Origin: Octopus sinensis
Lineage: Eukaryota
Direction: 5' to 3'
Length of the DNA: 64,000 nt
Assembly: GCF_006345805.1 (NCBI RefSeq)
Contig: NC_043015.1
Location: 40,176,001 to 40,240,000 of the forward strand
Both the position numbers and the translations under genes were made by a program. Below the pieces are notes generated by a model. It was not told the DNA's origin. It ran no database searches and worked only from the letters and a program-made list of their open reading frames with translations. Positions 8,454 through 52,062 of the stretch are shown piece after piece (position 1 is the stretch's first letter; each line of letters opens with the position of its first letter).

Positions 8454-8867
8454 TATATAGAAAATAGAAAAGAGTGAAAAAACTACAGAAGGCTTGTTTT
8501 ATAAGGTTAAAGAATATATTTAAGTCGTTATGTTAGAAGAATATTATAAAATTTTGCATATAGTAACATAGTCTTTGGAGAAATAACCGGTTTCGTGTAA
8601 ACTTTTCAAATTTCTCAAATGTCTTTACCTACATCGTGTCATGCCTGGAACTCTTCTTTGCACTGCATAACGAAGACATGACACGATGTAGGTAAAGACA
8701 TTTGAGAAATTTGAAAAGTTAACACGAAACCGGTAATTTCTCCAAAAACTATGTTACTGTATGAAAAAAATTTTTAACATTCTTCTAATATAACGACTTA
8801 AATATATTATTTAACCTTATAAAACAAGCCTTCTGTAGTTTTTTCCCTCTTTTCTATTTTCTATATA
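8454..8867. mobile_element. Long inverted repeat (about 190 bp arms, about 33 bp spacer), Penelope-like pLTR-type
   Basis: 8454-8643 is the reverse complement of 8677-8867 with scattered mismatches; TA-repeat flanks; each arm contains a hammerhead fold. Confidence 0.8.
8704..8742 (+). ncRNA. Minimal type I hammerhead ribozyme, U3-A8 variant
   Basis: GAGAAAT [TTGAAAA] GT-TAAC-AC GAA ACCGGT A ATTTCTC: 7-bp stem I, very short stem II, palindromic stem III, GUA cleavage triplet. Confidence 0.6.
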
Positions 8868-9524
8868 CATATATATGTGTGTGTGTGTGTGTGATTATTA
8901 CGGATTATAATATCAGTGTGTTTTGCTGGGTTTTCTTTTAAATTCTAAATACCTGTCACACCATTTCAAGTTCATTTTCAAATATAGTTTGAAGCATCTT
9001 GGCACTGGATGCAAGATTTTTATTTCTGTTATGCGGCCTCCTCCACTGAAATATGATCCGTTGCTGGAATCATTGGTGTTGGTAGTGGTGATGGGCATAT
9101 ATGGCTAGTGTTATTACTATTGTTGTATTTAGAACCAGTGGTTGTGGTGGTGGTAGTATGTGTTGCTATGGTGATATTATGTGCATCATGTTTTGTTTTT
9201 GTTTATCCCTAGGCCACCTCTGATCTAGCCAATCTATGCTAAATACATTCCAACCATGACCATCCTGTCTTTAATTGATAAAATGTATTTTGGACTATCT
9301 AATTTAATGTGTCCTTCTTTTCTAAAGAATGTGTATGATTTGATGCAGTTTTAGCTATTACTTCTAGCAGGTCTGACAACAATGTAGATGCAGTCTTTAA
9401 GTGGTGTTGTCATTGTTGTTACTGTTGTTGTTCAATAGCAATCATGTAAAGCTATGTTTGAAGCTCTTTCATTCCTGATCTCTCAGACTAATTATATTAA
9501 GAATCATTACCAATGTCACTGGAA

Positions 9525-9745
9525 ATGGTGGCACCAGTGCCATTAGTGATGGTGGCACCAGTGCCATTAGTGATGGTGGCACCAGTGCCATTAATGATGG
9601 TGGCACCAGTGCCATTAGTGATGGTGGCACCAGTGCCATTAGTGGTGGTGGCACCAGTGCCATTAGTGATGGTGGCACCAGTGCCGTTAGTGATAGTGGC
9701 ACCAGTGTCGTTAGTGATGATGGCACCAGTGCCATTAGTGATGGT
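9525..9745. repeat. 24-bp minisatellite, about 9 copies
   Basis: GTGATGGTGGCACCAGTGCCATTA unit with internal palindrome TGGCAC-CA-GTGCCA. Confidence 0.9.
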
Positions 9746-9812
9746 GGGGGCGGCAGCTGTAGTGTTGTAGGTATGTTTCTCTGTATAACAGTTTTGTCCT
9801 ATTCCATCATGC

Positions 9813-11313
9813 CTATATCTTTACTACCCACAAGGGGCTAAACACAGAGAGGACAAACAAGGACAGACAAATGGATGAAGTCGATTACATCGACCCCAGT
9901 GCGCAACTGGTACTTATTTAATCGACCCCGAAAGGATGAAAGGCAAAGTCAACCTCGGCGGAATTTGAACTCAGAATGTAGAAGCAGATAAAATACCTAT
10001 ATCTTTACTAACCACAAGGGGCTAAACACAGACCGGACAAACAAGGACAGACAAACGGATTTAGTCGATTACATCGACCCCAGTGCAAAACTGGTACTTA
10101 TTTAATCGACCCCGAAAGGATGAAAGGCAAAGTCGACCTCGGTGGAATTTGAACTCAGAATGTAGAGGCAGATGAAATACCTATTTCTTTACTACCCACA
10201 AGGGGCTAAACACAGAGAGGACAAACAAGGACAGACAAACGGATTAAGTCGATTATATCGACCCCAGTGCACAACTGGTACTTATTTAATCGACCCCGAA
10301 AGAATGAAAGGCAAAGTCGACCTCGGTGGAATTTGAACTCAGAATGTAGAGGCAGATGAAATACATATTTCTTTACTAACCACAAGGGGCTAAACACAGA
10401 GAGGACAAACAAGGACAGACAAACGGATTAAGTCGATTATATCGACCCCAGTGCGCAACTGGTACTTATTTAATCGACCCCGAAAGAATGAAAGGCAAAG
10501 TCGACCTCGGTGGAATTTGAACTCAGAATGTAGAGGCAGATGAAATACATATTTCTTTACTAACCACAAGGGGCTAAACACAGAGAGGACAAACAAGGAC
10601 AGACAAACGGATTAAGTCGATTATATCGACCCCAGTGCGCAACTGGTACTTATTTAATCGACCCCGAAAGAATGAAAGGCAAAGTCGACCTCGGTGGATT
10701 TGAACTCAGAATGTAGAGGCAGATGAAATACATATTTCTTTACTAACCACAAGGGGCTAAACACAGAGAGGACAAACAAGGACAGACAAACGGATTAAGT
10801 CGATTATATCGACCCCAGTGCGCAACTGGTACTTATTTAATCGACCCCGAAAGAATGAAAGGCAAAGTCGACCTCGGTGGAATTTGAACTCAGAATGTAG
10901 AGGCAGATGAAATACATATTTCTTTACTAACCACAAGGGGCTAACACAGAGGACAAACAAGGACAGACAAACGGATTAAGTCGATTATCGACCCCAGTGC
11001 GCAACTGGTACTTATTTAATCGACCCCGAAAGAATGAAAGGCAAAGTCGACCTCGGTGGAATTTGAACTCAGAATGTAGAGGCAGATGAAATACATATTT
11101 CTTTACTAACCACAAGGGGCTAAACACAGAGAGGACAAACAAATGGATTAATTCGATTATATCGACCCCAGTGCGTAACTGGTACTTATTTAATTGACCC
11201 CAAAAGGATGAAAGGCAAAGTCGACCTCGGCGGAATTTGAACTCAGAACATGACAGACGAAATACCGCTAAGCATTTCGCCCGGCGTGCTAACGTTTCTA
11301 CCAGCTTGCCGCC
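9813..11313 (-). mobile_element. Tandem array of 8 SINE units (about 184 bp) with a single tRNA-like head
   Basis: Units start near 9813, 9997, 10181, 10365, 10549, 10732, 10916 and 11095; only the last carries the A-box head (ends about 11313); all retain the B box GAGTTCAAAT. Confidence 0.9.
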
Positions 11314-12093
11314 ATTTTTGTCCTAATCCATCATACCTCCTGATCAAAGACAATCCGCATATGACCATCCCACCTTTATATTTCAGGCAGTATATTCTGA
11401 GAAAACATTAGGCAAAATGTCCTTCTTTTATTAAGGAATATAAGGTGATTTGATGTGAGATTTGGCTGCTGTTTCTAGGATGAATGACCCACATCATTAA
11501 TATGTGTAGCTTGTGAGTATCAGGTGTAGGTGTATGGCAGAATGTATGCCTACACTCAGCAACACCTGCTTTGATGTTGGAAGGCTTTTATCTATGCTCA
11601 TCACACCTGAGTCTGTGAGCATCTACACACCTGACATACACACACACGTACATATGAGTGTCTGCACATATCTCTATGCGTATATGTGTGTGCGTACGTA
11701 TACATACATCTATACATAGATGTATGTATACATCACATACATCTATACATCTACATATGTGCATATGTGTGTCTACACACGTCAAACATGTGTATACACA
11801 TACCTCTATGCATATACGTGTGTGCATATGTATACATACACACACACACATACATACATACATACATCTATACATCTACATGTGTGTATATGTGTGTCTA
11901 CACACGTCAAACATGTGTGTGTATACACATACCTCTATGCATATATGTGTGTGTGTGTGTATGCATATATACATACATATATATACATACATCTACATGT
12001 GTGCATATATGTACATTTACAAGTCAAGTATATATATTTGCACACACACACACACACACACACCTACACACACACTCACACACACTCACACTC

Positions 12094-12151
<58 letters not shown>

Positions 12152-12338
12152 CACACACATACACACACACATACACACACATACACACACATACACACAC
12201 ACACACACACACAACACACACACACACACATACACACACACACACACACATACACACACACATACACACATACACACATACACACACACACACTCACACA
12301 CACATACACACACACACACACACATACACACATACACA

Positions 12339-12373
<35 letters not shown>

Positions 12374-13773
12374 CTGATACATATATCAATACCACAAAAC
12401 ATTTTAGTGTGAAAGCTTGATGTAAATTTCGTTGCCTACTTATGACAATGGAGTCAAGGGTGTCTATTATATTTCTATACAAGTATCTACATACGTATGT
12501 ATATGTGTAAATGCATATGTACAGGAAGGTATATATATAGCCGTATGCCTGCATGCATGTATGTATGTGTGTATGTTTATACACTTATATATATTTGTTA
12601 ATTACACATATGGATGTATTTCTGTAAATACATAGATGTGTGTTTATATATATATATACACCCACACACGTGTATGTGAATGTTTGTATTCATACACATT
12701 CTCTCTTTGACACTCTCTCTCTCTCTCTCCTACACACACACACTTTCTCTCTCTTCTATGCACACACACGCACACACACACACACTCACTCACACACACT
12801 CACTCACACACATACACTTTCTCTCTCTTCTATACACACTCGCACACATACACACACACATACTTTCTCTTCTATACAAACACACGCACATACACACACA
12901 CACACACACTTTCTCTTCTATACACACACACACACACATACACTCTCTTCGATACACATGCACACATACACACATACACACACACTTTCTCTTCTATACA
13001 CACACACACACACATACACTCTCTTCGATACACATGCACACATACACACATACACACACACTTTCTCTTCTACACACACACACATATACACACACACTTT
13101 CTCTTCTACACACACACTTTCTCTTCTATACACACACACTTTCTCTTCTACATACACACACACACACACTTTCTCTTCTATACGCACACACACGCACACA
13201 CAGACACACATACCTACCCTCTTTTTACACACACATATTTCTCTCTCTCACTCTTTCTCTTTCTCTCTCTCACCCTTTCTTTCTCTCTCTCTCTTTTCCT
13301 CTCTCTCACTCTTTCTTTCTCTCTCTCTTTTCCTCTCTCTCACCCTTTCTTACTCTCTCTCTCTCTCTCAGCCAAAGAATACAATCTCATTTTCTCAACA
13401 TCCAAAACTGTCCAATTCACCAATCTGTTTTACAACTGCTACACCTACTCCTACTACTACTGCCACTACTACTGCTTCTTCTTCTTCTTCTTCTTCTGCT
13501 ACAACTACCACCTCTGCAACTAGTACCACCACGACAACTACTACTATAACAGCAACTATTGATGCTGTTCTGTCACAGCTAACTTGCAGCGCTTCTGCCA
13601 GACAACTCTGATGGCAATAGTATCTTCGTCTTCATCCTCCACACCATCACACCACTACCACCACGACCACCACGACGCCACCACCAACATGATGAACAAC
13701 AACAACACCATGTTGTCCCATTCTTCCACCTGTATTACCTTGGTCTCTATGTATTCTAATCTTTCATTTACAG

Positions 13774-13844
13774 AACAACAACCGGGCAAAGAACAGCAAA
13801 ATGGTCGCAACACGGAACCAACTTCCAACGACGACTCCGAAGAG
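13774..13844 (+). CDS. Candidate exon (anoctamin N-terminal extension or an upstream gene)
   Basis: ctttcatttacag acceptor, GAG|GTAATT donor, 71 nt complex island among simple repeats. Best reading (E)QQPGKEQQNGRNTEPTSNDDSEE, but all three frames are open; no homology recognised. Confidence 0.5.
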
Positions 13845-14137
13845 GTAATTCACCTTACTTTCATTATCTACATCGCGCCTCTTCTTCTCTCCTTTTCTCT
13901 CTCTCTCCTTCTTGCTCTCTCTCTCTCTTACTTGTCAAACTATATCTAAACGCATTGTGACAATGTGTTGTCTCTCTTCACACACAGGAGATAAAATTTA
14001 AAATACTTTCCTCAACATGTGATGATCCCACTTTGCAAATTGTCCAAAGTCTCTCTCTTTCACTCTCTCTCACCCTCTCTCTCACCCTCTCTCTGTCACT
14101 CTCTCTCTCTCTCCTTCTCTATCACTCTCTCATTGTT

Positions 14138-14168
<31 letters not shown>

Positions 14169-14863
14169 GTATGTATGTATATATAAACATACGTATATAA
14201 TAAAATTTCTCTCTTTCTTAACCTCACTGTGTCTCACCTTAATAACCTCTCTCTCTCTCTCTTTCATTATACACACACACACACACACACACACTCAACC
14301 TCTGTTTCTCTCCTTTATTCTAATCTTCTTTCTCTCTCTCTCTCTCTCTTCTCTCTCTCTACAATGTTGAATTTATTAATTTCAGCCAAACTGTGTAACT
14401 GTGCTCTACCCAAGTGCCTCAAATCCATTCTTGTAATGCCTCAAACATTATTTTACCTTTCAAAATATTCACCTTTCTCTCCTGCTCTCCATTCAATCTC
14501 ACACACCAAAAAAAAATAATAATTTCAATAATTTATTTTCTTTGAGATGTTTTTATGTTTCCTTTTGTTCAAATGGAATTTATGTCTTTCCCTCCTTTTT
14601 GTTTTACATACAGGGTTCTAATCCAACCGGATTAACGTCACACAACAACCACCCCCTCATCCACCCACTGTACATACCCTCATTTCTGTATTTGGCATCT
14701 AGCTTCCCCCATTCTTTGTACCAAGCCGTCCCACATCCCACCCACTGCCACTCTGCATCACTACTGTACATACCATCATACCATCCCCAACGGCAACATT
14801 GGACCTCCATCCACCCCTGTCGCTCTATACAACTATCTATGCATGAGTATACACACACACACA

Positions 14864-14910
<47 letters not shown>

Positions 14911-16916
14911 ACCTCCCACATGTACACCCATTCATACAACTCCTACATACACACACACACACCTACACACAAATACTCCTTTCCGCACAAAACATCCACC
15001 CCTACCTGTAACAATAGTGGTCACACACATCCTGTATAGATTTACATTTTCCCTTGCATGAAGGACCGTTGTTGCAATATTTCTGTGTTTTACTGTTACC
15101 CTGCGACTGTGTAGGTTGAGGACCTCCCTCCTCTTTTGCTGTGTCACCTGCGTATGTCGATAATTTGGCACCTCGGTTGCTAATGATCCATATATGCTGA
15201 TAAATTACACCCTATGTCGTTGCAAGACCCATTTATGTTAAACATTTGACCCCCTTCTATTAGTCTGAGACCCAAGTATGATAAGGAATAAACCCTTCGG
15301 TTATTGTATAATCTCTGGATGTTGAGGACTCCGATTTGTTTGTTGCCATATGATAAGTGAAAGCTGACACCTTATACCCTTCGTTTCTGAGTGACCAATG
15401 GATGCTATGAACTTTGTTCCTCGTGTTCTTGTGCGACTTATGCCACTATGTTGAAGACACTCGCCCCCACCTTTTTGCTTTGTAACCCTTATATGGTAAA
15501 AACTTACTTTGGATTATTTGAAATAAGGGTGATAGTGTTTAGAGTTGTAGCTCTGTTTTTCTTAAACCGACCCCTGTCGAAATCATTCAACCAAAAAACT
15601 GTCTTAATTTGATCTGTTCAATGTTGATGGGGAAAGTCCTGAACTTGGAAGTAGGTAGCTGTGAAGAATTTGGCTGGTCATCCTCTGTTGGTTATAAGTG
15701 AAAAGACACATGGTCTGGTCACAGTAAGCACCTAAGCTTCCAGAGATGGGAAGGGCTGTACCATTGGCAGGGTACAGGCCACTCCCTTCCCTGAGGCATC
15801 TACTACCCACATACATAAAACAAAAATCCAAAACAATTTGAAAGAAAAAAGGATTTTTGCAATAAAAAAAAAGACTGAAATAAAAAATGCTTAACATTGA
15901 ATTTAAAGAAGAACTAAAGAGGCAGGAAATTGAAAAAAGATAAAATACTGACCCTCACTCCATTTAATCTCCATGTATAATCCATGTGCTTGGGTCAACG
16001 ATGAATTAAAAATTTCCCTTTTAGGTATGGGGACATAAAGACAACAAGGATAAAACTGCTCTCTTTTAATTTTATTTTCTGGCCCATCGACGAGTATATG
16101 TGTGTATACATAGTATATATTTCTTTGCTACCCACAAGGGGCTAAACACAGAGGGGACAAACAGGGACAGACAAACGAATTAAGTCGATTACATCGACCC
16201 CAGTGCATAACTGGTACTTAATTTATTGACCTCAGCAGAATTTGAACTCAGAACATAGCGGCAGACGAAATACGGCTACGCGTTTCGCCTGGCATGCTAA
16301 TGTTTCTGCCAGCTCGCCACCTTTTGTATACATAGTATATACATGTCAGCATAGTATATAGTGTGTACATACAAAGAGTATACACGTCAACATAGTATAT
16401 AGTGTGAAATTAAAAACAATCAAACAGTATCTTCATTTTTCAAAATCTTTGTTGCATTTCACATGGAATTTTTGCTCCTCCAAATTTGTCTTGGTGTAGA
16501 AGAATTCAATCTACTTTCTTTTGGAGGCTATAAATTTTGGCCTGAAAAATTCCACTTGTTCACTGGAAAATACGGTGTGTTCTGAGTTTAAATCCCTTGA
16601 GGATGGGTCAGGGTCACTCAACTGACATCGTCATCATCATCACCTCCTCTCTTGTGCTGATATTACAAACTCCTGAGAGGTGGGGGGTGGACTGACTGAC
16701 CAGTTGGTCAGGAGATAATAATACTTTGTTACATTAGGAGTTCAAATTCAACTGTAGTTAACTTTCTCTTTCTTTTGAGTCTCAATCAATAGGTACCGTT
16801 TCTTTTCTGTCTTGTAAAATTCTTGCCTTTCAGTTATGAATCCTTAATTTTGTAATTAGTCGTCTTGGTTCTTCATTACTCTATGGAAAATTACTATTAT
16901 TATTATTATTATAATA

Positions 16917-16951
<35 letters not shown>

Positions 16952-18115
16952 TTTTACCTTCTTTCTTCAAATTTTCTTTCATTTCTCACCGAGTATTTTC
17001 CGTAAACCTAGGGCAGAGAAGCTCATAGTACACATTCCCTGATTACACACGCAAACTCACAGGTAAAATATATATTTAAAAAATTATTATCGTTATTATT
17101 ATATTATTATTATTATTATCATCAAAGTGGCAAGCTAGCAGAACCATTAGCATACTGGACAAAATGCTTAGCAGTGTTTCATCTATCTTTGACTTACCCT
17201 TCTCCTCAAAAGCTGCTGACCCTCTGCCAAAACTTTGAAACCATTATTATTTCATCTGCCATTACGTCCTGAGTTCAAATTCTGCTGAGGTTGACTTTGC
17301 CTTTCATCCTTTTGGGGTTGATAAATTAAGTACCAGTTGCGCACTGGGGTCGATGTAATCGACTTAATCCCTTTGTCTGTCCTTGTTTGTCCCCTCTGTG
17401 TTTAGCCCCTTGTGGGTAGTAAAGAAATAAATTATTATTATTACTACTACTACTACTAAGAAGACGGCAAGCTGGTAGAAGCGTTAGCATGCTGTGTGAT
17501 ATGTCTAGTGATATTTCGTCTGTCACAATATTCTGATTTCAAATTCCACTGAAGTTGACTTTGCCTTTCATCCTTTCGGGGTCAATAAATTAAGTACCAG
17601 TGAAACACTGGAGTCAATGTAATCAATTTAATCCCTTCCCCCAAATCTGAGGCCTTGTGCTCTCAGTAAAAAGGCTTATTATTATTATTATTGTTGTTGT
17701 TGTTGTATTAAAAGCAGTGATGGCACTGGCAATGTCCACGCTCGAATGTTGCTTTTCATGTGCCACCAGCATATGTGCTGGTAAGGCGACACTGGCAAAG
17801 ATCACGCTCGAATGGTGCTTTTCACGTGTCACCAGCACAAGAGCCAATCCGTGGCCCTGGCAACAATCATGCTTGGATATGCTTTTAACCTTCCACTGGC
17901 ACAAGTGCCAATCAGGCGGTACTGTTATCAGCCATGTCAGCAATTTTGATTTGTTTGCTCTTGCCTCAGTAGTGGAGCTTTAGGTGTTTTCGCTCAATAA
18001 ACACTCACAATGCCCAGTCTGGGAATCAAAACCGCGTTCCTATGACTGCGAGTGCGCTGCCCTAACCACTGGGCCATTGTGCCTCCACATATATATATAA
18101 TATATATATATATAT

Positions 18116-21098: not shown

Positions 21099-21111
21099 TT
21101 ATTGTTATTAT

Positions 21112-21415
21112 TCAAGACAAAGAGCGCGATTCGATTGTAAGATATTTTATTAGTTGAACGATATTTCAACAGTACGTCTGTCTTTGTCAAGTTCAAAATA
21201 AGAAGTGATAAAAATTCAAAATTATAGAAATTTAAACATAAAGTATGAACGAGGGCAACCAGTGTCCACACGTTGATGGAATGACATCATCAGTCTTTAA
21301 GTTAACAATTTTATCACTTCTTATTTTGAACTTGATGACAAAGACAGACTTACTGTTGAAATATTGTTCAGCCAATGAAATATCTATTACAATCGAATTG
21401 CACTCTTTGTCTTGA
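21112..21415. mobile_element. Inverted repeat (about 105 bp arms, about 90 bp spacer) inserted in (TAT)n, Penelope-like
   Basis: 21112-21216 vs 21307-21415 are reverse complements; TAT microsatellite on both sides. Confidence 0.75.
21154..21196 (-). ncRNA. Minimal type I hammerhead, U3-A8 variant
   Basis: Minus strand: TTGAAC [TTGACAA] A GACAG-ACGTA-CTGTT GAA ATAT C GTTCAA; 6-bp stem I, 5-bp stem II, palindromic ATAT stem III, AUC triplet. Confidence 0.6.
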
Positions 21416-21627
21416 CTATTATTATATTATTATCATTATTATTATTACTTACAACAGCAGTTATAAAACAAAGAAATTCGTTTGACAGAATGCTTGCTGC
21501 AGTGAGCAGATGCTTTGCAGAAATTGTTACATTTTCCTTTCCTTCCCCTTTTAATAAAACAAATAATGCTTGATGATGGGGTGTATAAGTCATCACCCAA
21601 GTTGTATAAATTATCAAATATATATAC

Positions 21628-24680: not shown

Positions 24681-24715
<35 letters not shown>

Positions 24716-24916
24716 TAATAGTGTCACTGAGACTCAAAGGTGTCAGGTAATGCTGAATAAGTACTATAGACAGACCATGGTTAAGTTCCAGATTCGGTAA
24801 TATTGCGAATAAAGGGTTCAACATTGGTTCTATGTCAGCGTGTGTATAAAAGAATATTTTGCATAATAAGATAAAAAACAAAGGCTGTATAGATATTAGA
24901 ACATTTATAGATAGAA

Positions 24917-24970
24917 GGTCTTACAACTGTTTCTAGGATATTAATTAATAATATCCCTTCATCAGAGACC
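24917..24970 (-). ncRNA. Minimal type I hammerhead ribozyme, canonical CUGAUGA core
   Basis: Minus strand: GGTCT [CTGATGA] A GGGATATTA-TTAAT-TAATATCCT A GAA ACAGTTGT A AGACC; GUA triplet. Confidence 0.8.
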
Positions 24971-25088
24971 GTGTGAGAGGATAGTTAAGTCATAGTTAGT
25001 TTAGATGTGATTCTATTTTCTTTCCTCCACCTCATTCTCTATTTGTATCACATCTAAACTAACTATGACTCAATTTTTCCTCTCACAC

Positions 25089-25142
25089 CGTCTCCGATGA
25101 AGGGATATTATTAATTACTATCCTAGAAACAGCTGTAAGACC
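25089..25142 (+). ncRNA. Hammerhead copy in the opposite arm, core CCGAUGA (U4C)
   Basis: CGTCT [CCGATGA] AGGGATATTATTAATTACTATCCTA GAA ACAGCTGT A AGACC; perfect palindromic stem III, mismatches in stems I and II. Confidence 0.6.
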
Positions 25143-25883
25143 GTCTATCTATAAATGCTCTCATATCTATACAGCCTTGGGTTTTTTTATCTTATTACGC
25201 AAAAAATTCTTGTGTGCATGTGCGTGTGCGTGTGTGTAGTCATAGCATATAAAGCAGAATTTATCATCTGAATGTAAATAAATTCACTTCTTTGTTTTCT
25301 ACTTTTACAACTTTGTTCCTGTTCTGCAGATATTTGATATCAGTTACAATGAAGTTTTGCAGTAATAAAGAGATAATCCAGTAATACGTTTGAAATAATC
25401 TTATAGACTACCTATAATCTATATCTCATTTCTAAAAACTTTTCGCTCATATTTTTTTTCCTTTCTGAAATAATCCTTTTGTTTTAATATTGTTGAATTT
25501 TCAGAAAAACAAATTTATTATACTACCTGGCCTACCATATATATATCATCATCATCATCATTATCATTTAATATCCACTTTCCTTGCTGGCATGGGTTGG
25601 ACTGTTTGACTGGAACTGGTAAGTCAGAGAGCTGCATCAGCTTCCAGTCTGATTTGGTTTGGTTTCTAAGGCTAGGTGCTCTTCCTAAAGGGCATGTAGC
25701 CATAGAAACCAAGCCAAATCAAGCCTTTCCTAATGCCAACCACTTTACAGAGTGTTTTGGATGCTTTTTAATGTGGCACCAGCACAAGTGTTTTTACATG
25801 ACACCAGCACAGGACCTTAGCTGGCCAATGCTCTTCTCCAGAGGGCCTCCTCTTCATCAGGAGGCCTCTTCTTCATAAGGGGG

Positions 25884-25916
<33 letters not shown>

Positions 25917-27712
25917 CTTATAGAAGTTAGTTCATTAATTTGTTATTCTGGACTGGCTTAAATAAAGTACTGTACTTTATTTGTACTGAGTACTTCTCCA
26001 GATAATTACCCAACATCTGTGTATACACACACACACATATACACATACACACACTCACACACACATACACACACTCACACACACATACACACACAGAAGC
26101 TTATGATGCACTCCATTGCTGCTCTAAACTTCCCCACACAAAGAATGCAACTCAGAGTAATGACGTCATCCTGAACTTCTGCTTTTTTTTCCTCTGATTT
26201 GTGCAAAACTTTGGCAATGCAGGAAGATTAAACTAACTCTTTTACTCTTTGTGCTGGTCCATTCCTGCATCTTACAAGTTCCAGCAATGTCTTGGAACCT
26301 TTCTCCCAACAAATCTAAAATTTTAATTTTTTTTTAGATTATAAACTAAAACTTCAGTATTTAAATATTCATTTGAATTCATCTGATAAATTATTCAATC
26401 CCTTCAATGTTGCTTTTTTTCTCTCTACCCCCCCCCCATTGTCCACCCCCTAAAAAAACTTGTATGAATCTACCTTTTCTGTTTTTCTTTCTCTGTTTCT
26501 CTGTCCAAAATGTAATGAACTGAATATCTGTAATTCTACACTGATGATGCTCAATGATGCAGAAACAGTCTGTTTATAAATATAGCTATAGAAGAAATAT
26601 GAAATATTCAATAATTTTATACTAAACTATGTAAACATAAAATGTATGTAAATATATATTAAAGTTTATATACTGGGTAATTGGGCTTTTTGTCACCTGT
26701 ATTTGTGTGTGTGAGTGTGGGTAATCATTCTAATTAATAAACGAGCATTACTATTTTGTAAATTGTCATATCCAAAATGTATTACAATGAAAGTTACTAA
26801 ATCTAAAATGAATTTTATTGATTTGATATTTCTTGCTTTCAGGTTTATTTATCAGCTTTTTTTCTTTTCTGGTGTCAAATGACAACAATTCTCTCTCTAT
26901 CTCCCTCCCACACTCTTTCTTTCTCTCGCTCATAAATTACAAGTGGCTGTGTGTGTGTATGTGTGTTCTCGGCATGTTTCTACAGAATGTGGACAGACAG
27001 GACTCCTCATAATTGTACGTTAAGTACTTGAGAACATAATGTGTGTGTATATAACTAATGTGTGAGTGTGTGTGTGTGTGTGTATGTGTGTGTCTATGTA
27101 CTTTCTGAATCTGTATTCATTGTGCTTCTTTGATGTGAGTGTATGCATTATGTATGCGTGTGTATATGTTTATTTGATAAGTGTGTGTGTGTGCATTGTG
27201 TGTTGATATAAGTGTGTGTACAATTCGTGAGTAGTTATATAGCTGATTTGCTTGGACTGTGTATGTGTGTGCATGAATCAGGAGTAAGTATTGAGTGTAT
27301 ATGGGCATGTGTGTGTGTTTGTGTGTGTGTGTACATGTAGATGTAGATATATATAGATATATACATATACACACATACATAGATATATGTTGATATACAG
27401 ACACAAACATAGATATACACTCACATACACACATGTAGATATAGATAGATATATGTATTGGTAGACACATTTTCATATATATATATGTGTGTGTGTGTGT
27501 GGAGAGAGAGAGAAACATACAGCAGTATATGTATACATCATGTGAGTGTGTGTGTGCATATAGTAAGTATATACTCTGTAAAGATGAGGTCAACAGTGTT
27601 AGATATCTATGTTTGTACACTGTCTAGATGTAAAAGCATAGATCTTGTGTGGATGTGTTTAATAGTATTAAGTTGGGAAGGCAATTGGCACGAAATGGAA
27701 GTAAAATTGAAG

Positions 27713-28791: not shown

Positions 28792-28832
<41 letters not shown>

Positions 28833-28893
28833 TAACAGAATGATATAAAAAATCCAAGGGTGTGAATAGTTTTCAGAACTTTTATAAAGAGAA

Positions 28894-28943
28894 AGTGTTA
28901 CAGCTGTTTCCGGGATATTTTATACATCTCTTCAACAGAGACT
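28894..28943 (-). ncRNA. Degenerate solo hammerhead of the 24.9 kb family
   Basis: Minus strand: AGTCT [CTGTTGA] AGAGATGTATAAAATATCCCG GAA ACAGCTGT A ACACT; flanks resemble the 24850 element. Confidence 0.5.
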
Positions 28944-29091
28944 GTGCGAGAAAATGTTTAAGTGATAATTATTGTAGAGAAGACAGGAGATACAGAAGGA
29001 AGTGAAGAAATGAAAATAGAATTAAGATACGTAAGGATATTGTATTTGCAGCTCCATTATTTAAGCAGAATGGTGTATGTATATATATATA

Positions 29092-29249
29092 CTTTATTTA
29101 AAGCAGCAGAAAATTCTACAAAACCTGTTACTCTGAGTTTCACGTTGCCGTTCGTCGGACAGTTTTTGCTAGAAAAAACTGTCCAACGAACGGCAACGTG
29201 AAACTCAGAGTAACAGGTTTTGTTGAATTTTCTGCTGTTTTAAATAAAG
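29092..29249. mobile_element. Near-perfect hairpin (about 76 bp arms, about 6 nt loop), Penelope-like
   Basis: 29092-29167 vs 29174-29249; follows a TA repeat. Confidence 0.8.
29125..29162 (-). ncRNA. Minimal type I hammerhead, core CCGACGA
   Basis: Minus strand: CTGT [CCGACGA] ACG-GCAA-CGT GAA ACTC-A-GAGT A ACAG; GNRA-capped stem II, GUA triplet. The + arm copy (29179-29216) reads CCAACGA. Confidence 0.65.
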
Positions 29250-29326
29250 CATATTACTCTACCACTGGTATTTGAGTACTCTTTTTTCCATCTTGTTTCA
29301 CATTTATGTGTTTACTCCGGTATATG

Positions 29327-42525: not shown

Positions 42526-42556
<31 letters not shown>

Positions 42557-42681: not shown

Positions 42682-42743
<62 letters not shown>

Positions 42744-44623
42744 ATCATCATCATTGCTATTGTGGTTGCAAGGGCAGAATGCCTTTCACCAAACTTATGA
42801 ATTATTGCATACAATTTTCTAGTTTTGAAAAACATCATTTTATATTTTTGTTGTATTGTTTTTGTTAATAAGCCAACCAATGTTCTACGTGGCTGGTTGG
42901 CTTTGTTAAATTTTTGCCCATCTGGGCAGAATATGTTGTTGTTTGTTTTTGTTCTAAAACAAGAAAAAACGAAAATATACCCATGGAAAAAAAACATGGA
43001 AAAAAAACATTGCATCAAAATTTTATGCAAATTGTCAAAGGGGTGAAACCAGAGATTGGAAGAGCTGTTTTGGCTCCAACTTCCTCCATTTCCAATAAAG
43101 TGTCACTTTTCCTATTCCAATAAAGTGTCACTTTTCCTATTCCAATAAAGTGTCACCATTCCTGCCAACACTAGAAATCAAAACAAATAGGCAAGTGATA
43201 AAAACAACACCAACAATAAAGAAATTGAAAATAACATTTATGTAAACAGCTAAAATGAAAACTTAGAACCAAAAACATCTTAGTTGTCATTCGATACTTT
43301 TAGACATTTCATTTCTGCTGCCACTAACACCATTTATGCCAACACAAAATATGAAAATACTGCATGCGAAAATGGTGTCAGCAGCTCACCAAAAATAGAA
43401 AGAAATTGTTTTAAATTTTGAAGAATTAGAAAAATTCAAAACAATATTCTCATGAGACATGAGTAAAACATTGCACTCATTATCCCAGAATCCACCGAGT
43501 AACAAACTAACCTCAGAATGGTTGTCTTTAAAACTTTAGCCATAAAAAGTAGAAAATGGAACAGGTAACAGCAACAGATTGAAAAGGGTCTCAGACTAAT
43601 CTGGAACACCAAAACACATTCATCATCATAGTTTAACGTCCGTTTTCCATGCTAGCATGGGTTGGACGATTTTGACTGAGGGTTGGTGAACCAGATGGCT
43701 GCACCAGGCTTCAATCTTGATCTCACAGAGTTTCTACAGCTGGATGCCCTTCCTAACGCCAACCACTCTGAGAGTGTAGTGGGTGCTTTTTACGTGCCAC
43801 CTGTACGGGGGCCAGTCAGATAGAGCACAGCGAATGTGAGATTCCTTACAAAGGATGAGGCCAGAAAGATCTTCATAACTAATCTAAGATGGGATGAACT
43901 GGTCCTTATCCCAACCTCACTTGTTTGCAGAGTAGTTAGAATAAAAGTAGTCAAAATGCTGTCAGAAATAAACATTTGCTGGTTGGTGAAGCTGTATTTT
44001 TTTGATATGGAGTCAAAACCAACATTCTACAGATGCAGAGGCTGTAGAAACAAAATTGGTTTGATTGGGGGATGGAGCTATTGATCCAAACAGATCACCA
44101 AAGCAAGGAAGTTATCCCAGTACTAGTCAGTCTACCAAATATGGCTGTTGAGGGCTGAAGGCTGAAATGTCACTCGTATAGTGACACAAACCACCTTGAG
44201 GCTTTCAATCCACAACAAAGGAATGAAGAAAGACCACAACTTCTGCTGACACCATCGCTACCACAACAACAACAATAGAGCTAACAGAAAACCCAAAACA
44301 ACAACAACAGCTATATTATCAAAACAACACAAAAAATCTTCCCCAGATATGTCCCTCTCTGACTTCCTCTGCACAGATGTTGTACGACAAAGGGGTTGGG
44401 GAAGAGAGCAAAGGGTAACTAGTAACAAAGACAAAAAAGGGGTTTCTTTGTTTTTGTTATTTTTACTGTTTACACAATTCCATGCAACCCTTTATCACAT
44501 CATATCATATTGTATCACCCTGTACCATCTTCAAGCTGTTTGTAAATATTTAGCAATTGATAAAAAAAAATCATCTTATGAATAAATTAGAAACACTATT
44601 ATTACTATTATTATTATTATTAT

Positions 44624-44874
44624 TATTCTGTTGTGTCTGGGGAGAGCTATTTTCTTTTTGATTTAACACACTCACTGGTAAAATTTCCACTTATTTCTTA
44701 TTTTTATTTTCCTAAAAGTTTCATTGCATCTTGCAACCTTTTCAATAGTCTTGACTCTGGAAATGTTGCAAGACGCAGCGAAAATTTTAGAAAATGAAAA
44801 TAAAAAATAAGTGGAAATTTTACCAGTGAGTAAGGCACAAAAAGAAAATGACTCTTCCCAGACACAACAAAATA
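44624..44874. mobile_element. Almost loop-less inverted repeat next to (TAT)n, with a degenerate U3-A8 hammerhead
   Basis: Arms meet at AGTC-TT-GACT (44747-44756). Minus strand 44712-44748: CTA [TTGAAAA] G GTTGC-AAGAT-GCAAT GAAA CTTT TAG. Confidence 0.7.
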
Positions 44875-44945
44875 TGCTTCAACACACAAACTCATATAAA
44901 GAATCTTGCAAACCAAATCCAAAAACAAAATTATTATTATTATTA

Positions 44946-44984
<39 letters not shown>

Positions 44985-45357
44985 CTATATTCTGTGATGT
45001 TAGAAATCCTGTTATTTCCTTTAAAAAGCTATCGATAATTAATTGATCCAAGATGTATCACTGTTTCCTAACACTGCAATTAAATCTATCACTTATATAA
45101 TCACTTGTACCTACTTACGGCTAAGTAGACTGGACTATTGACAATAAAGTGTCTTAGTTATGGACAGTTAAGGACACAGTACATTGAACTACACCACACC
45201 ATGGTACCTATTAGAGCTAGGTAGATTAACTGGATAATAATAATAATAATTATAATGATAATAATAATTCTTCATTCATATAATAACTATTTTTTTAATT
45301 ATTTCATTATGATAACAATAATTATCTATCATAATAATGATAATACTAATGATAATA

Positions 45358-45388
<31 letters not shown>

Positions 45389-45441
45389 TAGTAGTAATAA
45401 TAATAATAATAATGATTATAATAATGGTCATGATAATAATA

Positions 45442-45476
<35 letters not shown>

Positions 45477-46308
45477 GTAATTATCATAATCAAATAATTA
45501 GTATTTGTTTTATTGAACATGTCAAGTAATTATTATTTCATGTTTTAATTAATTTTTCATATTTAACTCTCATATTGTGTCTTTTTTTCTTTCCCTCTTT
45601 CTCTCTCTGTCTCAATCTTTTCTTCTTCTGTGAACGATTTAAAATATATCGGTCCTAACTCTCCTTTCCATGGGAACAGCAATCCGTAAGAAACAAAATC
45701 ATCTTTTGTATCTGATTTTAACCCAGTTTTTTTTGTGTGTGTTTTTCCCTCTTTTTACATCCCAAAACGTTTTTTTTTTTTCCCCCCTTTTCTGTTGCAT
45801 GATTTTGGTTATACAGATGTTACAGACTGATTAACGAGTTATCATCTTGGTGTAAGCATGTCATCATTCTTCTGTTCCTTGTCATGAGTCTTCAGTCAAA
45901 ACATTTGTCATACTGCATGTGGTGTTTGAAACAAACTGACAAATATTTTTTTCTTTAAAAAAAAAAAAAAAAAGAAAGAAAAAGAAACTCATTCCTGTTC
46001 CAACTCACAACACAACTCTTTCTATATGATCTTTCATTCTTATTCAAAAACCAACTACAAAAAACTGACTCATCATCAGTTTGTCCATCATCATCACCAT
46101 CATTTCCATTATCATCATCATCATCACACATCCTCATTACCATGTCAATCATAAGAAATTTCACCAAAAGAAATTTCATTTGAAATGCTTCATTTTTTTT
46201 TTTTTTTTTATGTTTGACATTGAATAAAGATGTACTTGCATAGCAAGTGATCTGATCTGAGATCACGTGCTGGAACAAAAACAATTGCAGCATGGAAGGT
46301 GTTAAGCC

Positions 46309-46506
46309 ATTTAAGAAACACACAAAAACTGTTAGATTCACTTCAACATTTGAATTTAATTTGTCAAAATATTTTCGTCGCTTTGAGACCGTGCTGCATG
46401 GAATTTTGTCAGTGAACAGGTCGCGGCCTCAAAGCAACAAAAATATTTTGACAAATTAAATTTAAATGTTGAAGTGAATCTAACGGTTTTTGTGTGTTTC
46501 TTAAAT
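46309..46506. mobile_element. Inverted repeat (about 85 bp arms) with a G3-C8 hammerhead variant
   Basis: 46309-46393 vs 46422-46506. + strand 46405-46455: TTTGTCA [GTGAACA] G GTCGC-GGCCTCAAA-GCAAC AAA AATATT T TGACAAA. The other arm preserves GCGAC GAAA at the equivalent positions. Confidence 0.7.
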
Positions 46507-47117
46507 TGAATAAAGACTTGTCAATTTAAAATTTTTATAAAAACTTTTACCATTTATTTTCAATTTTATTTTTTAAAATGCTGATATAATGCACTTTATT
46601 TCTGTCCATACAACAAATTTGTCTTACAGTGAATTCGTCTTATGTTTAGTTTTCCTGTAAGGCAAAATTTTCTACACTGAATATTCCAGACATGACCATC
46701 AGTATCATCATGGTCAATATGGATAAAAATTATTTTTATTCGTTATTGGTTTGTTGTTGTTGTTTTAATACTAATGAGTGGTGGTTTTAATTATCTGTTT
46801 TAACACCACCACAAACACTACCACCAACTGGTTCTGGGTGCATTTCAGCAGAGTCCACTTTGTTGAAAGCTTTCATACCAGGTCTCATGTGAGTTTGAGG
46901 GAAACCACTTTCTCTCCCCTTGCCATTCTCAGGAACCCTAGAAAGGTTCAGGAGCACTAACCCACTTATGAATAACCAATATGTTTTAAGTGAAAAAAAA
47001 AATTTTTTATGAAAAATTTGATAAAATTATCTAAAAAATATATATTTTACTCTTACCTTTTAAACTTCATTTTTCTAATGTATATGCTTATATATACATT
47101 TCTAATTGTTAGCTCTC

Positions 47118-47153
<36 letters not shown>

Positions 47154-49136
47154 TGTGTGTGCATCATCATCATCATCGTTTAATGTCTGTTTTCCATGCT
47201 GGCATGGGTTGGATAGTTTGACTAGGGTCTGTGAAGCCAGGAGGTTGCACCAGGCTCCAATTTGATCTGGCAGTGTTTCTACAGCTGGATGCCCTTCCTA
47301 ACGCCTACAACTCTGAGAGTGTAGTGAGTGCTTTTTATGTGCCACCAGCACAGGGGCCAGAGGGGCTGTTATTTCTATGTCTATGTATTTGTTTTTATGT
47401 GTTTATGTAAATGTGTCTGTATTTGCCTGTATATCTGTGTGTTTGTTTTAATTGTTTATTCCGTGTGCATATATTGGTCTGATAGCATATTTATTAACAG
47501 ATTATATTTGTGTATATATATCCATAGGTAAACATGTTGCTAAATATCAGTATAGGCATATATGAATATACCTTTATACATCTACAAGGTTGTGAGCACT
47601 GTATTGTGATCAGCAAAAGAAGAGGGCCAATGTAATGCAGAGAGGATTATGGTCTTACTGAAGACCAGACTACCTCTCTGGTGTTGGTGTAATGATGAAA
47701 TGCAACCAGTACTCCTGGGAAAGGGGTTGGTGTTAGGGAGGTCAACCAACCATAGAAGTCATAACAAAAATGGAATGTGGGAGTAAGACATCGTCCCAGA
47801 ATCATCCAGTGGGTTGCAACCAGGTCCATATGGCCCATGGGTAGGTGGGGTCCATTTGAGATTTTGATGCTAAAATCTGTCTGCAATAAACTGGTTATGC
47901 TTCTACTGTACACAAAATACATTAACAATTTTTTCTTATATAATTCCTAATAATATTTAATCATGAAATTATTATAGCATTTGTTTAAAGATCAACTGGC
48001 TGGTGGGTAACCAAAGGGGTCCACAGGAAAAAGATGGTTGAGGACCACTGCTCTAAATAAGGGCTCAGATTGTATCAACCCATCCAACCTGTGCCAGTGT
48101 GGCAAAATGGTTGAAAAATGGTGGTGGTGATGATGATGGGTAGAATTATAAAGTTCTGAGTAAAGGGAAATCTTAGAAAACAGATTTTGGACATTAAGAC
48201 AAAGGGGGCTGGCAGTAGGGGTTATATAGGAGTGCAGTTTATTAATTCAGCAGGAATGAAAACTACTGTCACCATCACTCTCATATTCCAGCACCAAGTG
48301 GACTTCAGAGAGGCTCCATGTGGTTTATAAGTCATGCTAGAACTAACAACAATATCTCCCTAAAATCTGGCTACCTTAAGAATCCCTTCTGAAGGCAGTC
48401 AGGTTTTCTAGTTCTAAGACATACGTCAATGTCTTAGGACTATGCCTAACAAGGTTGGAAGCTCACAGCTGGAATGTCTAATTATAAATCTTCGCAATAA
48501 GAATTAACATGGGGTCATGGGGTCAGCACCAACCAATGCTTTAGGGATTCACAGTGTATTTGCTGCAACCACCACCATCTACCTCTAGTAAATCTCAACC
48601 ACTAATTAACAGTAATTGTCTACGATCTCATTATGACTTTCAAATGTATCTGTAGCATTGTTATTAATTTGATTCTTAGTTTTAATTCTGTCATCTCTCT
48701 GTTATGTTTATATCACTTCTGTGCATCCATAATTAAACATACATTGTTTCAATTTTGTTTAGTTTTTTTTTTTTTTGTGAAATTTTGTCTTTGTCTTCCA
48801 TCTTTCTTCATCTTGGTGCATGTCTGTGTGTCTTGGAGAAATATAGTTGAGATGTTTGGACAAAGTAAATTTGGATTTCCTACCTGAATTATTTCCATTT
48901 TTAATTAACATAGTTGAAAATTAACATTATTAATTATTCATATATTTATGTTTTTGTTAGATTTTTTTATGCTTTTATTCCTTTGTTTTACTTCATGATG
49001 TTGTTTTGTTCATTATTTGTACATACTAACACATGGGGCCATCCCTCCCCTTTCACAGGCATCTGTTGACAGAACTCTGTCAACCATGGTGTACCTTAGG
49101 GATCAGTCTTGTCACCAATTCCCTTCTTTCTCTATA

Positions 49137-49370
49137 TAGGCGGCGAGCTGGCAGAATCGTTAGCACGCTGGGCGAAATGCATAGCCGTATTTCGTCTGCC
49201 GTTACGCTCTGGGTTCAAATTCCGCCGAGGTCAACTTTGCCTTTCATCCTTTCGGGGTCGATAAATTAAGTACCAGTTAACGCATTGGGGTCGATGTAAT
49301 CGACTTAATCCGTTTGTCCGTCTTTGTTTGTCCCCTCTGTGCTTAGCCCCTTGTGGGTAGTAAAGAAATA
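49137..49370 (+). mobile_element. tRNA-derived SINE family A (representative full copy)
   Basis: GGCGGCGAGCTGGCAGAATCG (A box) ... GGGTTCAAATTCC (B box) ... GCCTTTCATCCTTTCGGGGTCGATAAA. Other copies near 82, 313, 3289, 5343, 16115(-), 17461, 27836(-), 41711, 52970(-), 56359 and 60893. Confidence 0.88.
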
Positions 49371-49938
49371 TATATATATCCATGGCTCTTTGCACTAGAC
49401 TCCATGGGTGCTACCCTTCCAACCAAATTCCCGTGGGTGCTGCCCCTTCAACCAGCAAGTAAAAATAATAAAGATCTCAGAGGATTCCCTCCCTATTTGA
49501 CTCATATTATGAAGGCAACTAAATTGATGCTTCATCTCGTGTACAATGCCAGCAGGTACCAAGATCTATGTTGAGGAATCTGATGGATTTAGGCGGAGTA
49601 CCCTGGGGTACCATTGATTAGTTATATTATATTTCTAATGTATTTTTACTAATTTATTGGTTTTACTAATATTAGTTTTTACTAATACTGTATTTTTATA
49701 ATTTGATAATTTTAGTTTTCAAACTATTTTTACTGTATTGTTCCTCCCGTAGTGGCCTTTTGGCAAACAAGAAATTTATTATGATTATTGTTATTATTAT
49801 TATTCTTATTATTATTATGATAAATATTGTTATAATAATAATTATTATTGCTGTTGTTGTTTTGAACTTTTGATATTTGTAGTAACTTATGCCATCTCTT
49901 GACAGAATCTCTCTCCTATCCATCTATCTATCTATCTA

Positions 49939-49989
<51 letters not shown>

Positions 49990-51521
49990 GTCTATCTTGG
50001 TATCTGTTTGCCTCTTCTTTCTTTTCATTTCTTTCCCTCCATGTGCTTTGGAATTTCTCTCCCCCCCCTCTCTCTCTCATATATGTATGTATATATATAC
50101 ATATATATATACACCTCTCTGGTTATGTCCCTCCAATGCATCTTGTTGCATTTTACTTCAGTTAAAAACTTTGAAAAGAGAAAGAAAAATGACAAAATGG
50201 TATTGTGTGTTCAGTTCTTGTGAAACAATAGCATTATAGATGTTGTGGTAATCATCCTTGCCGTAACAAATGCATGTTCAGTGGAAGATGAGATATCATT
50301 GCAACACTCTAAGTACAAGACTAACAGAGTAGATACCTTTTCGTTTTTTTCTTTCCCCTCTTTCTCTCTCTCTCTCGGCATCTCTTTCTTTCTTCCTCTC
50401 ATTTATTTATTCATGCAAAATATATATTCATTCATTCACACCTACATTCATTCACACACATTTGTTCATATACATACACTCCTCTGCACACACATACACA
50501 CACATAGAACGTTGAAAAGTTGCCCCACCCCACCCCTGCCAATGACAAGATTCATGTCTCCATTGAGCTCACAGACTCATTAAGACATCAGACACATCTC
50601 CATGTTCCATTTTTTGGTTTGATTTCTACAGCTGGATTCTTTTACATCATGAAGTTATTGTCTAAAAAATAAGAAACGGTCCTTATAATGCAAGGTTACA
50701 ATTTGAAATATGGACCCTTTAAAATTAGGGGTTTTGTACCATAGAACCAGGGGTGGGGGCAGTCTTGGATGGGGGTTGATACCAAAAGAATAAGCAACAT
50801 CATTTTACTTCAGTCATACAATATAGTTTTATAAACAGCCACTAAAAGAACTCATTTGTGGCATTACTGTCACAGTAGCCAATCATTCCTCAATGCATAA
50901 AGGGCCACTGAACAAGCATATTAAGGCAATTTCTCTTTCTAAAGCAGAGGTTAGCTTTATGAATCGTCTTATGCTCCAACATTCTTTCCAAAACCTTCAT
51001 TCCATAACTTAATCACTTTATATAAACCACAGTCTAGGAAATCACCTTCCTTCTTGTACAAATCGATGAGTGTGCTTGACTTTCAATCCAAGGTTCATTT
51101 AAGACCTGATCGATAATAAATAAGGAGATTAATCTATGGTAAACCATGTAATTTTATCAGATCAATTAATTTTACCATTAATTGCTTCTTTTATCTCAGC
51201 CTTTCATTTCAAGAATCATGTTTCTCCTGTCTTTAATTAATCCAAACAAGCCACTAACATTCGTTAGTTCTGCTCAGGAATTATTTCCCAATGTATCTGA
51301 TCGAGGATCTTGTATTTCAGGTTGGTTTTCCACCCAAAATAGCAAGAATATAATATTTATCTGCTCACACGAAAAATAAATAAATAAATAAATAAATGCA
51401 TATATATGTGTATGTATATATATAACGGGAAGGTTTGTGAAAATAAACAAAAGAGGAAGGCAGGTGGAGTACAAACAAACAAATGTATTAGTATGGCGCT
51501 CAGGAATAGAAATAGAACAAG

Positions 51522-51559
51522 TCTTTTACGTTTCGAGCCTACGCTCTTCGACAGAAAGA
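51522..51559 (-). ncRNA. Solo minimal hammerhead fold, core CUGUCGA (A6U)
   Basis: Minus strand: TCTTT [CTGTCGA] A GAGC-GTAG-GCTC GAA ACGT A AAAGA; perfect stems I and II, palindromic stem III. Confidence 0.6.
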
Positions 51560-51872
51560 TCATCATCATCATCATCATCATTGTTTAACGTCCGCTTTCC
51601 ATGCTAGCATGGGTTGGACGGTTCAACTGGGGTCTGGCAAGCCCGAAGGCTGCACCAGGCCAGTCAGATCTGGCAGTGTTTCTACAGCTGGATGCCCTTC
51701 CTAACGCCAACCACTCCGAGAGTGTAAAGATACACAGAAAAAAAACAAGGAGAGAAACAAGGAGAGAAAAAAAATGCGTGTAGGAGCTAGATATATATAG
51801 GGAGAGAGAGAGAGCAGTTGTATACTGTCAACTTAATGTGACAGTCCCATAAAGGGAATCACACCATCGCTA

Positions 51873-52062
51873 TTTAGCCCTAGGAAGCATCGACGCTTCC
51901 TGTCGGCCTTGACACATTTCCTGTGTCCTTATGTTTACAAAGGGGAGACAAGCACCCCCACCCAGCTAAGCCTGCTCCCAGAGAATAGTTTCTGAGTCTT
52001 TGCTCTTCATCAGTCTGGTGTAGCAAGGCCGACAGGAAGCGTTGATGCTTCCTAGGGCTAAA
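51873..52062. mobile_element. Inverted repeat (39 bp arms) whose spacer contains a hammerhead
   Basis: TTTAGCCCTAGGAAGCATCGACGCTTCCTGTCGGCCTTG (51873-51911) vs 52024-52062. Confidence 0.7.
51978..52018 (-). ncRNA. Minimal type I hammerhead, canonical core
   Basis: Minus strand: CCAGA [CTGATGA] A GAG-CAAAGA-CTC A GAA ACTATT C TCTGG; stem III is one change away from the palindrome ACTAGT. Confidence 0.7.

Follow-up and report, generated by a model that had tools for sequence, protein, structure and literature searches.

Truncated inverted ends of Penelope-like elements with minimal hammerhead motifs in the genome of Octopus sinensis

Palindromes and hammerhead motifs at the locus

The stretch of DNA analysed here (the window) comprises 64,000 nt of Octopus sinensis contig NC_043015.1 (positions 40,176,001 to 40,240,000 of the forward strand). 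It holds seven inverted repeats, which self-BLAST delimits at 8454-8867, 21106-21421, 24850-25211, 29087-29254, 44624-44874, 46309-46506 and 51873-51911/52024-52062, together with solitary elements at 28894 and 51522. The set consists of truncated inverted ends of Penelope-like elements (PLEs) that carry minimal hammerheads and belong to no fewer than five coding families, with up to three more that are short and non-coding. We label the families F1-F7 in window order, with the solo element at 51522 as F8; all were followed through the 2.72 Gb genome, where L-numbers denote the loci fetched in the family searches. A preliminary description of the window had reported seven palindromes without common primary sequence, and both points stand: the repeats were recovered where it placed them, and the seven family consensuses have no BLASTN similarity to one another.

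A strict descriptor of the minimal type I hammerhead finds seven sites in the window, whereas 40 block-wise dinucleotide shuffles average 0.1 (maximum 1), and all seven sites lie inside five of the repeats (two each in those at 8454 and 24850, one each in those at 21112, 29092 and 51873). The fold that had been claimed for every repeat is present in all seven consensuses, F1-F7, with a 3-8 pair, stems I and II, GAAA, a palindromic stem III and UH, but the window copies at 44624 and 46309 do not match the descriptor. In every one of the seven repeats, rather than in six as first described, the motif sense points away from the junction. An Rfam scan of the window gave no hammerhead among the 150 matches listed of 187, returning microsatellite-driven microRNA matches instead, and a MAFFT alignment of nine motifs had no invariant column and did not recover the structure.

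The F1 insertion (8421-8867) is composed of a 34-nt tail (8421-8453), a shorter minus-strand arm (8454-8646) and a longer, tailless plus-strand arm (8642-8867). Its minimal hammerhead lies at 8704-8742 on the plus strand, with a U3-A8 core, a 7-bp stem I, stem III ACCGGU and a predicted cut after 8735; the mirror copy, in which H17 is U, lies at 8578-8616 on the minus strand. F2 (21112-21420) is tailless here and has TAT repeats on both sides of a long minus-strand arm (21317-21112) and a short plus-strand arm (21309-21420). Its minimal hammerhead (21154-21196, minus strand) has a U3-A8 core and stem III AUAU, and the short arm carries a 3-nt insertion within the core. In F3 (24712-25211) a 134-nt tail (about 24712-24845) precedes the shorter minus-strand arm, which extends to 25011, and the longer arm follows on the plus strand (25012-25211). 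The hammerhead at 24917-24970 (minus strand) has core CUGAUGA and one mismatch in stem III, and that at 25090-25141 (plus strand) has core CCGAUGA and stem III ACAGCUGU. The solo element at 28894 (28822-29078, minus strand), described as one of two solitary copies, proves to be a decayed F3 relative of 72% identity and not an unrelated element, its hammerhead remnant (28895-28942) having U at position 6 and a mismatch in stem I.

The F4 insertion (29087-29320) joins a minus-strand arm (29174-29087) to a plus-strand arm (29169-29249) and a 71-nt tail (29250-29320), with TA repeats outside; the hammerhead at 29125-29162 on the minus strand is intact, with core CCGACGA, and the plus-strand copy (29179-29216), in the arm at 29183, is decayed by G5A. 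F5 (44624-44930) likewise has a minus-strand arm (44759-44624), a plus-strand arm (44758-44869) and a 60-nt tail reaching 44930. Its consensus has a U3-A8 hammerhead, and the window arms are decayed, the stem III palindrome being lost in one and the core broken in the other. The tail-bearing shorter arm of F6 (46228-46506) lies on the minus strand (46391-46228) and the longer arm, whose outer end is lost, on the plus strand (46392-46506). The F6 core is G3-C8 with a 7-bp stem I (46405-46455), and in the window copy one arm has G12A and the other lacks a core. F7 (51808-52062) pairs a long minus-strand arm of 222 nt (52029-51808) with a truncated short plus-strand arm (52024-52062), and its hammerhead (51978-52018, minus strand; core CUGAUGA) sits in the single-copy part of the long arm and has a broken stem III palindrome in this copy. 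The F8 solo (51416-51795, minus strand, ends approximate) measures about 210 nt and is interrupted by some 170 nt of inserted DNA, with its motif at 51523-51558 and a core CUGUNGA, so that the other supposed solitary hammerhead has U at position 6. The interruption, at approximately 51556-51725, is an unrelated repeat flanked by a short duplicated target.

When positions 3 and 8 were unconstrained, the descriptor gave 213 matches across 283 loci, and each of four shuffles gave 0-1; these matches are not independent, the loci having been picked around the window families, and about ten clusters are other families in the flanks. Each family search scored the best 40 of 1,150-3,374 candidates, and 21 loci fetched twice or duplicated, together with L129, L131 and L134 (both flanks as in L125), were left out before the counts. 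Positions 3 and 8 form a Watson-Crick pair in 197 of the 213 matches and in 19 of 21 clusters, and the pair covaries across families, being C-G in F3, F4 and F7, U-A in F1, F2 and F5, and G-C in F6. Stem III of F7 is ACUAGU (65) or ACAUGU (35) in all 100 matches listed of 156, a single swap that preserves the palindrome. Among 77 core positions one has a recurrent non-CpG variant, as do 68 of the 851 positions elsewhere (p 0.037). Exact-motif counts in the genome are at least 3,401 for F4, 2,526 for F6, 156 for F7 and, by pattern search, 14,617 for F8. In F8 the conserved A6 of the minimal type I hammerhead gives way to U in 99 and to C in 1 of the first 100 matches, and position 7 is any of the four bases.

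The flanks of L007, L014, L030, L055, L075, L078, L096, L146 and L266 contain about ten more hammerhead families, with C3-G8 or U3-A8 and differing palindromic stems III, and those beside L014 and L146 likewise lie within inverted repeats. One extra descriptor match in the window (26538-26572, plus strand; core CUGAUGA, 3-bp stems I and II), which is missing from the preliminary description, occurs once among the loci.

The palindromes themselves are predicted to be unlikely to cleave as ribozymes. Folding models give the window loci hairpins with perfect helices of 24-67 bp, and the probability of stem I in the predicted read-through of a head-to-head pair is 0.0000 for 7/7 consensuses; read-through would make the antisense arm first, and the resulting long duplex would silence the ribozyme. 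The hammerhead is likely to be inherited from the pseudo-long terminal repeat (pLTR) of the parent element, and to be under selection there as a dimer-forming or protein-assisted ribozyme. Copies beginning at the predicted cleavage site form no cluster among the inverted arms, a search in which the ribozyme-containing queries were biased against such copies.

Coding partners of the families

At other loci the arms of the repeats at 8454, 21112, 24850 (with the solo at 28894), 29092 and 44624 continue upstream into GIY-YIG frames, and these five families are therefore truncated ends of coding elements; that F1-F5 are PLEs seems to us almost certain. Of the preliminary description, the derivation from PLEs is upheld, and so are the minimal type I hammerheads. 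Extending the flanks, as it advised, led to linked PLE open reading frames (ORFs), with GIY-YIG for F1-F5 and reverse transcriptase (RT) for F1. Its view that the families are non-coding fails for five of the eight. The window itself, as it had stated, contains neither domain: tblastn of 24 translated pieces and 120 homologues found no match to PLE proteins there.

The F1 single arms (L016, L017) lead into a decayed RT, a CX4CxxC linker and a GIY-YIG frame. The 120 homologues listed of 188 are mostly proteins of 400-780 aa with RVT_1 and/or GIY-YIG, one of them from Octopus bimaculoides, and the F1 endonuclease has both the CX2-5CxxC linker and the CCHH motif expected of the Neptune/Nematis type, for which F1, F2 and F5 are candidates; Pfam gave no relevant family for the RT piece. 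Upstream of F2 (L033) Pfam finds GIY-YIG at 22.7 bits, above the cut-off, and there is a weak RT match. F5 (L221) has CxxC and GIY-YIG (E 0.0044) upstream of a simple-repeat untranslated region, and the decayed frames of both F2 and F5 retain CxxC and a partial CCHH. The endonucleases linked to F3 (L054, L062) and F4 (L264 and L272, reached after one more walk) differ from these in having a CxCX5C linker, a terminal CxxC and CxH, and no CCHH, by which marks, as read from the translations, F3 and F4 would be Hydra-type PLEs. The F4 arm lies about 1.3 kb downstream of the endonuclease frame, and in the Atlas an F4 piece falls near a GIY-YIG cluster at 0.94; no RT motif was found upstream in the two extended F4 copies (L282, L283).

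The remaining families are short. For F6, 30 single-arm loci have no common upstream sequence beyond about -29. F7 is a unit of about 355 nt in which the sequence upstream is the element's own tail: direct partial tandems with a period of 353-361, mostly of 1.2-2 units, occur in L145, L150, L157 and L158, and contigs from sequencing runs contain a joint going back 349. As a putatively non-coding unit within 150-450 nt, with a type I hammerhead and direct tandems, F7 would qualify as retrozyme-like on sequence grounds. The earlier label of retrozyme-like therefore fits the 51873 family, with its partial tandems, and does not fit F1-F6, which form inverted pairs, five of these families having coding partners. 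F8 is about 210 nt long with fixed ends. F6 and F8 may be short non-autonomous elements.

Mostly one tail per palindrome

Each of F1-F7 has two alternative 3' ends, 34-134 nt apart, so that the tail is optional. Among single-arm copies the longer, tailed end occurs in 34 of 75, and arms acquired independently would therefore be one-sided about half the time. In inverted pairs the tail is present on exactly one side in 76 of 80 (none in 2, both in 2; p ~1e-18 against 50%), a count from tail-free queries with duplicates removed, which excludes the F4, F4s, F5s and F6s sets, whose queries contained the tail. Six further pairs that turned up incidentally beside other families were all one-sided. 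Of 52 pairs whose arms are unequal, 35 have the tail on the shorter one.

An inverted, 5'-truncated partner in head-to-head orientation is seen in each of F1-F7, and in F4 the first 100 of 3,401 exact motif matches contain 18 head-to-head pairs within 600 nt and 0 tail-to-tail. Junction geometries are distinct in 12/12 F1, 7/7 F3, 26/31 F6 and 10/12 F7 pairs, and number 18 in 34 pairs of F4 and 22 in 35 of F5; since most are distinct, the palindromes mostly arise anew with each insertion. The F4 and F5 hot spots lie on intrinsic short inverted repeats, at which solo copies also have their 5' ends, and these hairpin junctions have overlaps of 6-13 nt; many other junctions have no overlap or have inserted bases. 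A simple repeat adjoins an end in 74 of 104 pairs with intact ends, and at 20 of the remaining 30 sites the element is bracketed by a direct repeat of 7-13 nt (0.6 when flank pairs are shuffled), indicating target-site duplications (TSDs) of that length.

The 5' ends of single arms of F4, F5 and F6 (L162-L251) gather about 10-29 nt upstream of the core, a view limited by query design; for F4, 26 of 30 copies end between -9 and -19, and 4 extend past -150. Arm and tail together form short direct tandems, TA-spaced and with a period of about 172-480 nt, at G000:C1:37863180-37863547, L179 (F4), L228 and L257, which would permit hammerhead dimers in cis. The palindrome centres of L005, L008, L219 and L220 contain iterated short templated pieces, which suggests repeated slippage while two cDNA (complementary DNA) ends were joined.

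We give a probability of roughly 0.7 to the reading that each palindrome is one PLE insertion, consisting of two 5'-truncated, hammerhead-bearing pLTR ends placed head to head, likely by two-strand priming. The GIY-YIG domain would make a staggered cut in both strands of AT-rich or microsatellite DNA, and each cut strand would prime its own cDNA, one of them beginning at the tail end and its counterpart at an internal start site, the two usually copying the same RNA or the same subfamily. The point at which each cDNA halts would vary, often lying 10-100 nt upstream of the hammerhead core, and short microhomology or small templated fill-ins would link the two ends; the intrinsic short inverted repeat of F4 and F5 would create the junction hot spot there. 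The two-primer step, which we consider probable, would yield the polarity, the TSD, the single tail and the free choice of tail side all at once. The insertions would be dead by-products, and double-stranded RNA would be the most that they supply. In L1 twin priming, too, both target strands prime cDNA and an inversion is left inside the TSD, with the two primers copying different parts of one RNA; unlike there, both arms here copy the same 3' segment.

Properties of a lizard PLE protein agree in part with this scheme, in that it cuts and extends both target strands, favouring AT-rich DNA, initiates at two positions that delimit the tail and is predicted to be a dimer, and insertion is independent of ribozyme cleavage (PMC11167929). 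A stronger version, in which PLE integration is obligately two-primed, a dimeric RT-endonuclease would start one cDNA at the tail end and the other at the internal site, thousands of minimal palindromes would be its fossils, and G3-C8 and U6 would be natural cores outside the published set, strikes us as an even proposition.

The most serious alternative starts from the same PLE ends and supposes that a cDNA folds back on itself or switches to antisense RNA, the endonuclease then clipping the tail from one end; we think it unlikely, but it deserves real weight. Self-priming and an antisense template were proposed in the passages of PMC3846280 that treat inverted insertions, and a tail arising from endonuclease-mediated resolution in those of PMC8557442. 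Fold-back would also give arms with common alleles, and the arms do agree: two non-CpG subfamily sites match in 28 of 31 F4 pairs, and minor alleles are common to both arms more often than in permuted arms in F1 (107 vs 27), F4 (26 vs 11), F5 (38 vs 14.5) and F7 (22 vs 7.6), allele sharing in F2, F3 and F6 being within the permutation range. What favours two-strand priming over simple fold-back is the position of the tail, because a fold-back copy of the longer arm cannot supply a tail to the shorter one; fold-back would need antisense RNA or trimming of the anchored arm in those 35 of 52 pairs. Fold-back is also at odds with an F4 locus, L074, whose arms come from two subfamilies, and with the many junctions that are overlap-free or have inserted bases.

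Several observations weigh against two-strand priming of PLE ends or limit its reach. The concordance of the arms, both at the subfamily sites and in the alleles of F1, F4, F5 and F7, is predicted equally well by fold-back, and the F4 and F5 junctions, on intrinsic hairpins with their 6-13-nt overlaps, fit self-priming as the relevant passages of PMC3846280 describe it. In the lizard system the start site showed no difference between strands (PMC11167929), and strict complementarity of the tails therefore needs a coupling beyond what that study describes. RT was seen for F1 alone; Pfam gave no relevant family for the F3 and F4 endonuclease pieces, a search for homologues of the F4 piece among longer proteins found none, and no ORF was found at the top-scoring loci of F6, F7 and F8. 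F8 has a tail in 0 of 14 copies reaching the 3' end and no inverted pairs among 100 matches listed, so that its link to PLEs comes from the motif and the TA flanks. Single arms, folded by themselves, have low predicted probabilities of stem I in F1 (0.13), F3 (0.00) and F5 (0.05). The locus set leans towards young, query-like copies, since it was drawn from the best-scoring candidates of each search. Finally, some F6 palindromes have multiplied as passengers of a larger repeat.

That last point bears on a second alternative, in which the palindromes are self-standing, non-autonomous hairpin retrozymes, transcribed, self-cleaving and amplified whole, which we regard as quite improbable. It would account for the recurrence of junctions in F4 and F5, for the identical 77-nt spacing in 8 of 13 listed F6 pairs, and for the tandem unit of F7 and the short tandems of F4 ends (L179). 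In F1, F3, F6 and F7, however, most junctions occur once, those that recur in F4 and F5 coincide with the 5' ends of solo copies, and the recurring F6 form has about 1.5-2 kb of flank in common because it is carried inside a larger repeat. The predicted block of the ribozyme fold by read-through and the coding partners of five families also speak against it. Amplification of the palindromes as units is accordingly rejected, save for the F6 form inside the larger repeat. In L125, L129, L131 and L134 (about 920-2870) the F6 palindrome with the 77-nt spacing lies within this repeat of about 1.5-2 kb, the start of which resembles that of non-autonomous elements of the Helitron/Helentron type.

Foldback DNA transposons or miniature inverted-repeat transposable elements (MITEs) with a hammerhead-like pattern by chance can be dismissed as vanishingly improbable: they would explain the long terminal inverted arms, the high copy number and the TA-rich flanks, but not the asymmetric, tailed ends, the descriptor matches (213 against about 1, with 3-8 covariation) or the common half-elements leading into RT/GIY-YIG frames, and in place of the symmetric termini, fixed short TSD and transposase partner of such elements, the last two of which the preliminary description had considered, we find TSDs varying over 7-13 nt and GIY-YIG/RT partners.

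Relation to known elements and other repeats of the window

Much of the architecture agrees with the inverted insertions of endonuclease-bearing (EN+) PLEs, for which the relevant parts of PMC8557442 (Fig. 2) and PMC3846280 describe a head-to-head truncated inverted copy, often with a one-ended tail, microsatellite or AT-rich targets, TSDs of 8-10 nt and junction palindromes. Compared with those accounts, both copies here are the pLTR alone (170-500 nt in total), the tails are 34-134 nt rather than 30-40 nt, and the one-sided tail has been counted (76/80) and found mostly on the shorter arm. The metazoan PLE hammerheads of PMC4209133 have in common with the present ones a short stem I, a palindromic stem III, an unpaired base before stem II and U3-A8; that paper finds the minimal motifs spread over many families within a genome, and in Schistosoma dual motifs 100-700 bp apart on opposite strands. 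The Hydra clade, as section 11 of PMC8557442 presents it, resembles F3 and F4 in the CxCX5C linker, the lack of CCHH, the CxxC/CxH near the C-terminus, the hammerheads and the (TA)n setting, the protein marks being those of the endonuclease. F7 resembles the metazoan retrozymes without long terminal repeats (non-LTR), in the portions of PMC7229834 and bioRxiv 10.64898/2026.07.22.740005 that concern them, in being non-coding, in its unit length of about 355 nt, in its C3-G8 hammerhead and in its direct partial tandems; in contrast to these, F7 also has a PLE tail and inverted partners, and the other six palindromes are not tandem units. The G3-C8 core of F6 is natural, whereas that of PMC11167929 is an engineered double mutant with partial activity, and F8 has U6, where PMC3088659, in the part concerned with this position, describes A6C as having low activity.

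Minimal hammerheads on PLE ends, their inverted truncated partners and the tails were thus already known, and what is added here is the counted one-tail rule and two unusual cores (G3-C8 and U6). PLE hammerhead variants are reportedly catalogued by Luense et al. 2016. We found no paper stating a natural G3-C8 core, and that work and the supplements of PMC4209133 and PMC8557442 may cover such families or cores; a literature search at the level of listings likewise found none stating a two-primer account of PLE inverted pairs, or octopus PLE hammerheads.

The origin of PLE inverted structures and the nature of the tail have been in question since at least 2013. A near-absolute rule of one tail per pair, in six unrelated families and with the tail often on the shorter arm, discriminates between models and could be tested with the in vitro PLE system already published. 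The two unusual cores, G3-C8 and U6, offer natural tests of what PLE hammerheads need and of the role of cleavage in their spread; if the stronger version above is true, the U6 family reached at least 14,600 copies with a core that is not canonical. For annotation, such repeats would be misfiled as MITEs, and the palindromes are a dense potential source of long RNA hairpins.

Other repeats of the window have no part in this set. Copies of another common repeat lie at 16115-17632, where an inverted pair (16115-17432) has no descriptor match, and at 9814-11248, where they form a 184-nt tandem array of 7.9 units; the repeat resembles a tRNA-derived octopus short interspersed nuclear element. Two further inverted repeats without a descriptor match lie at 25650-25721 and 373-1089.

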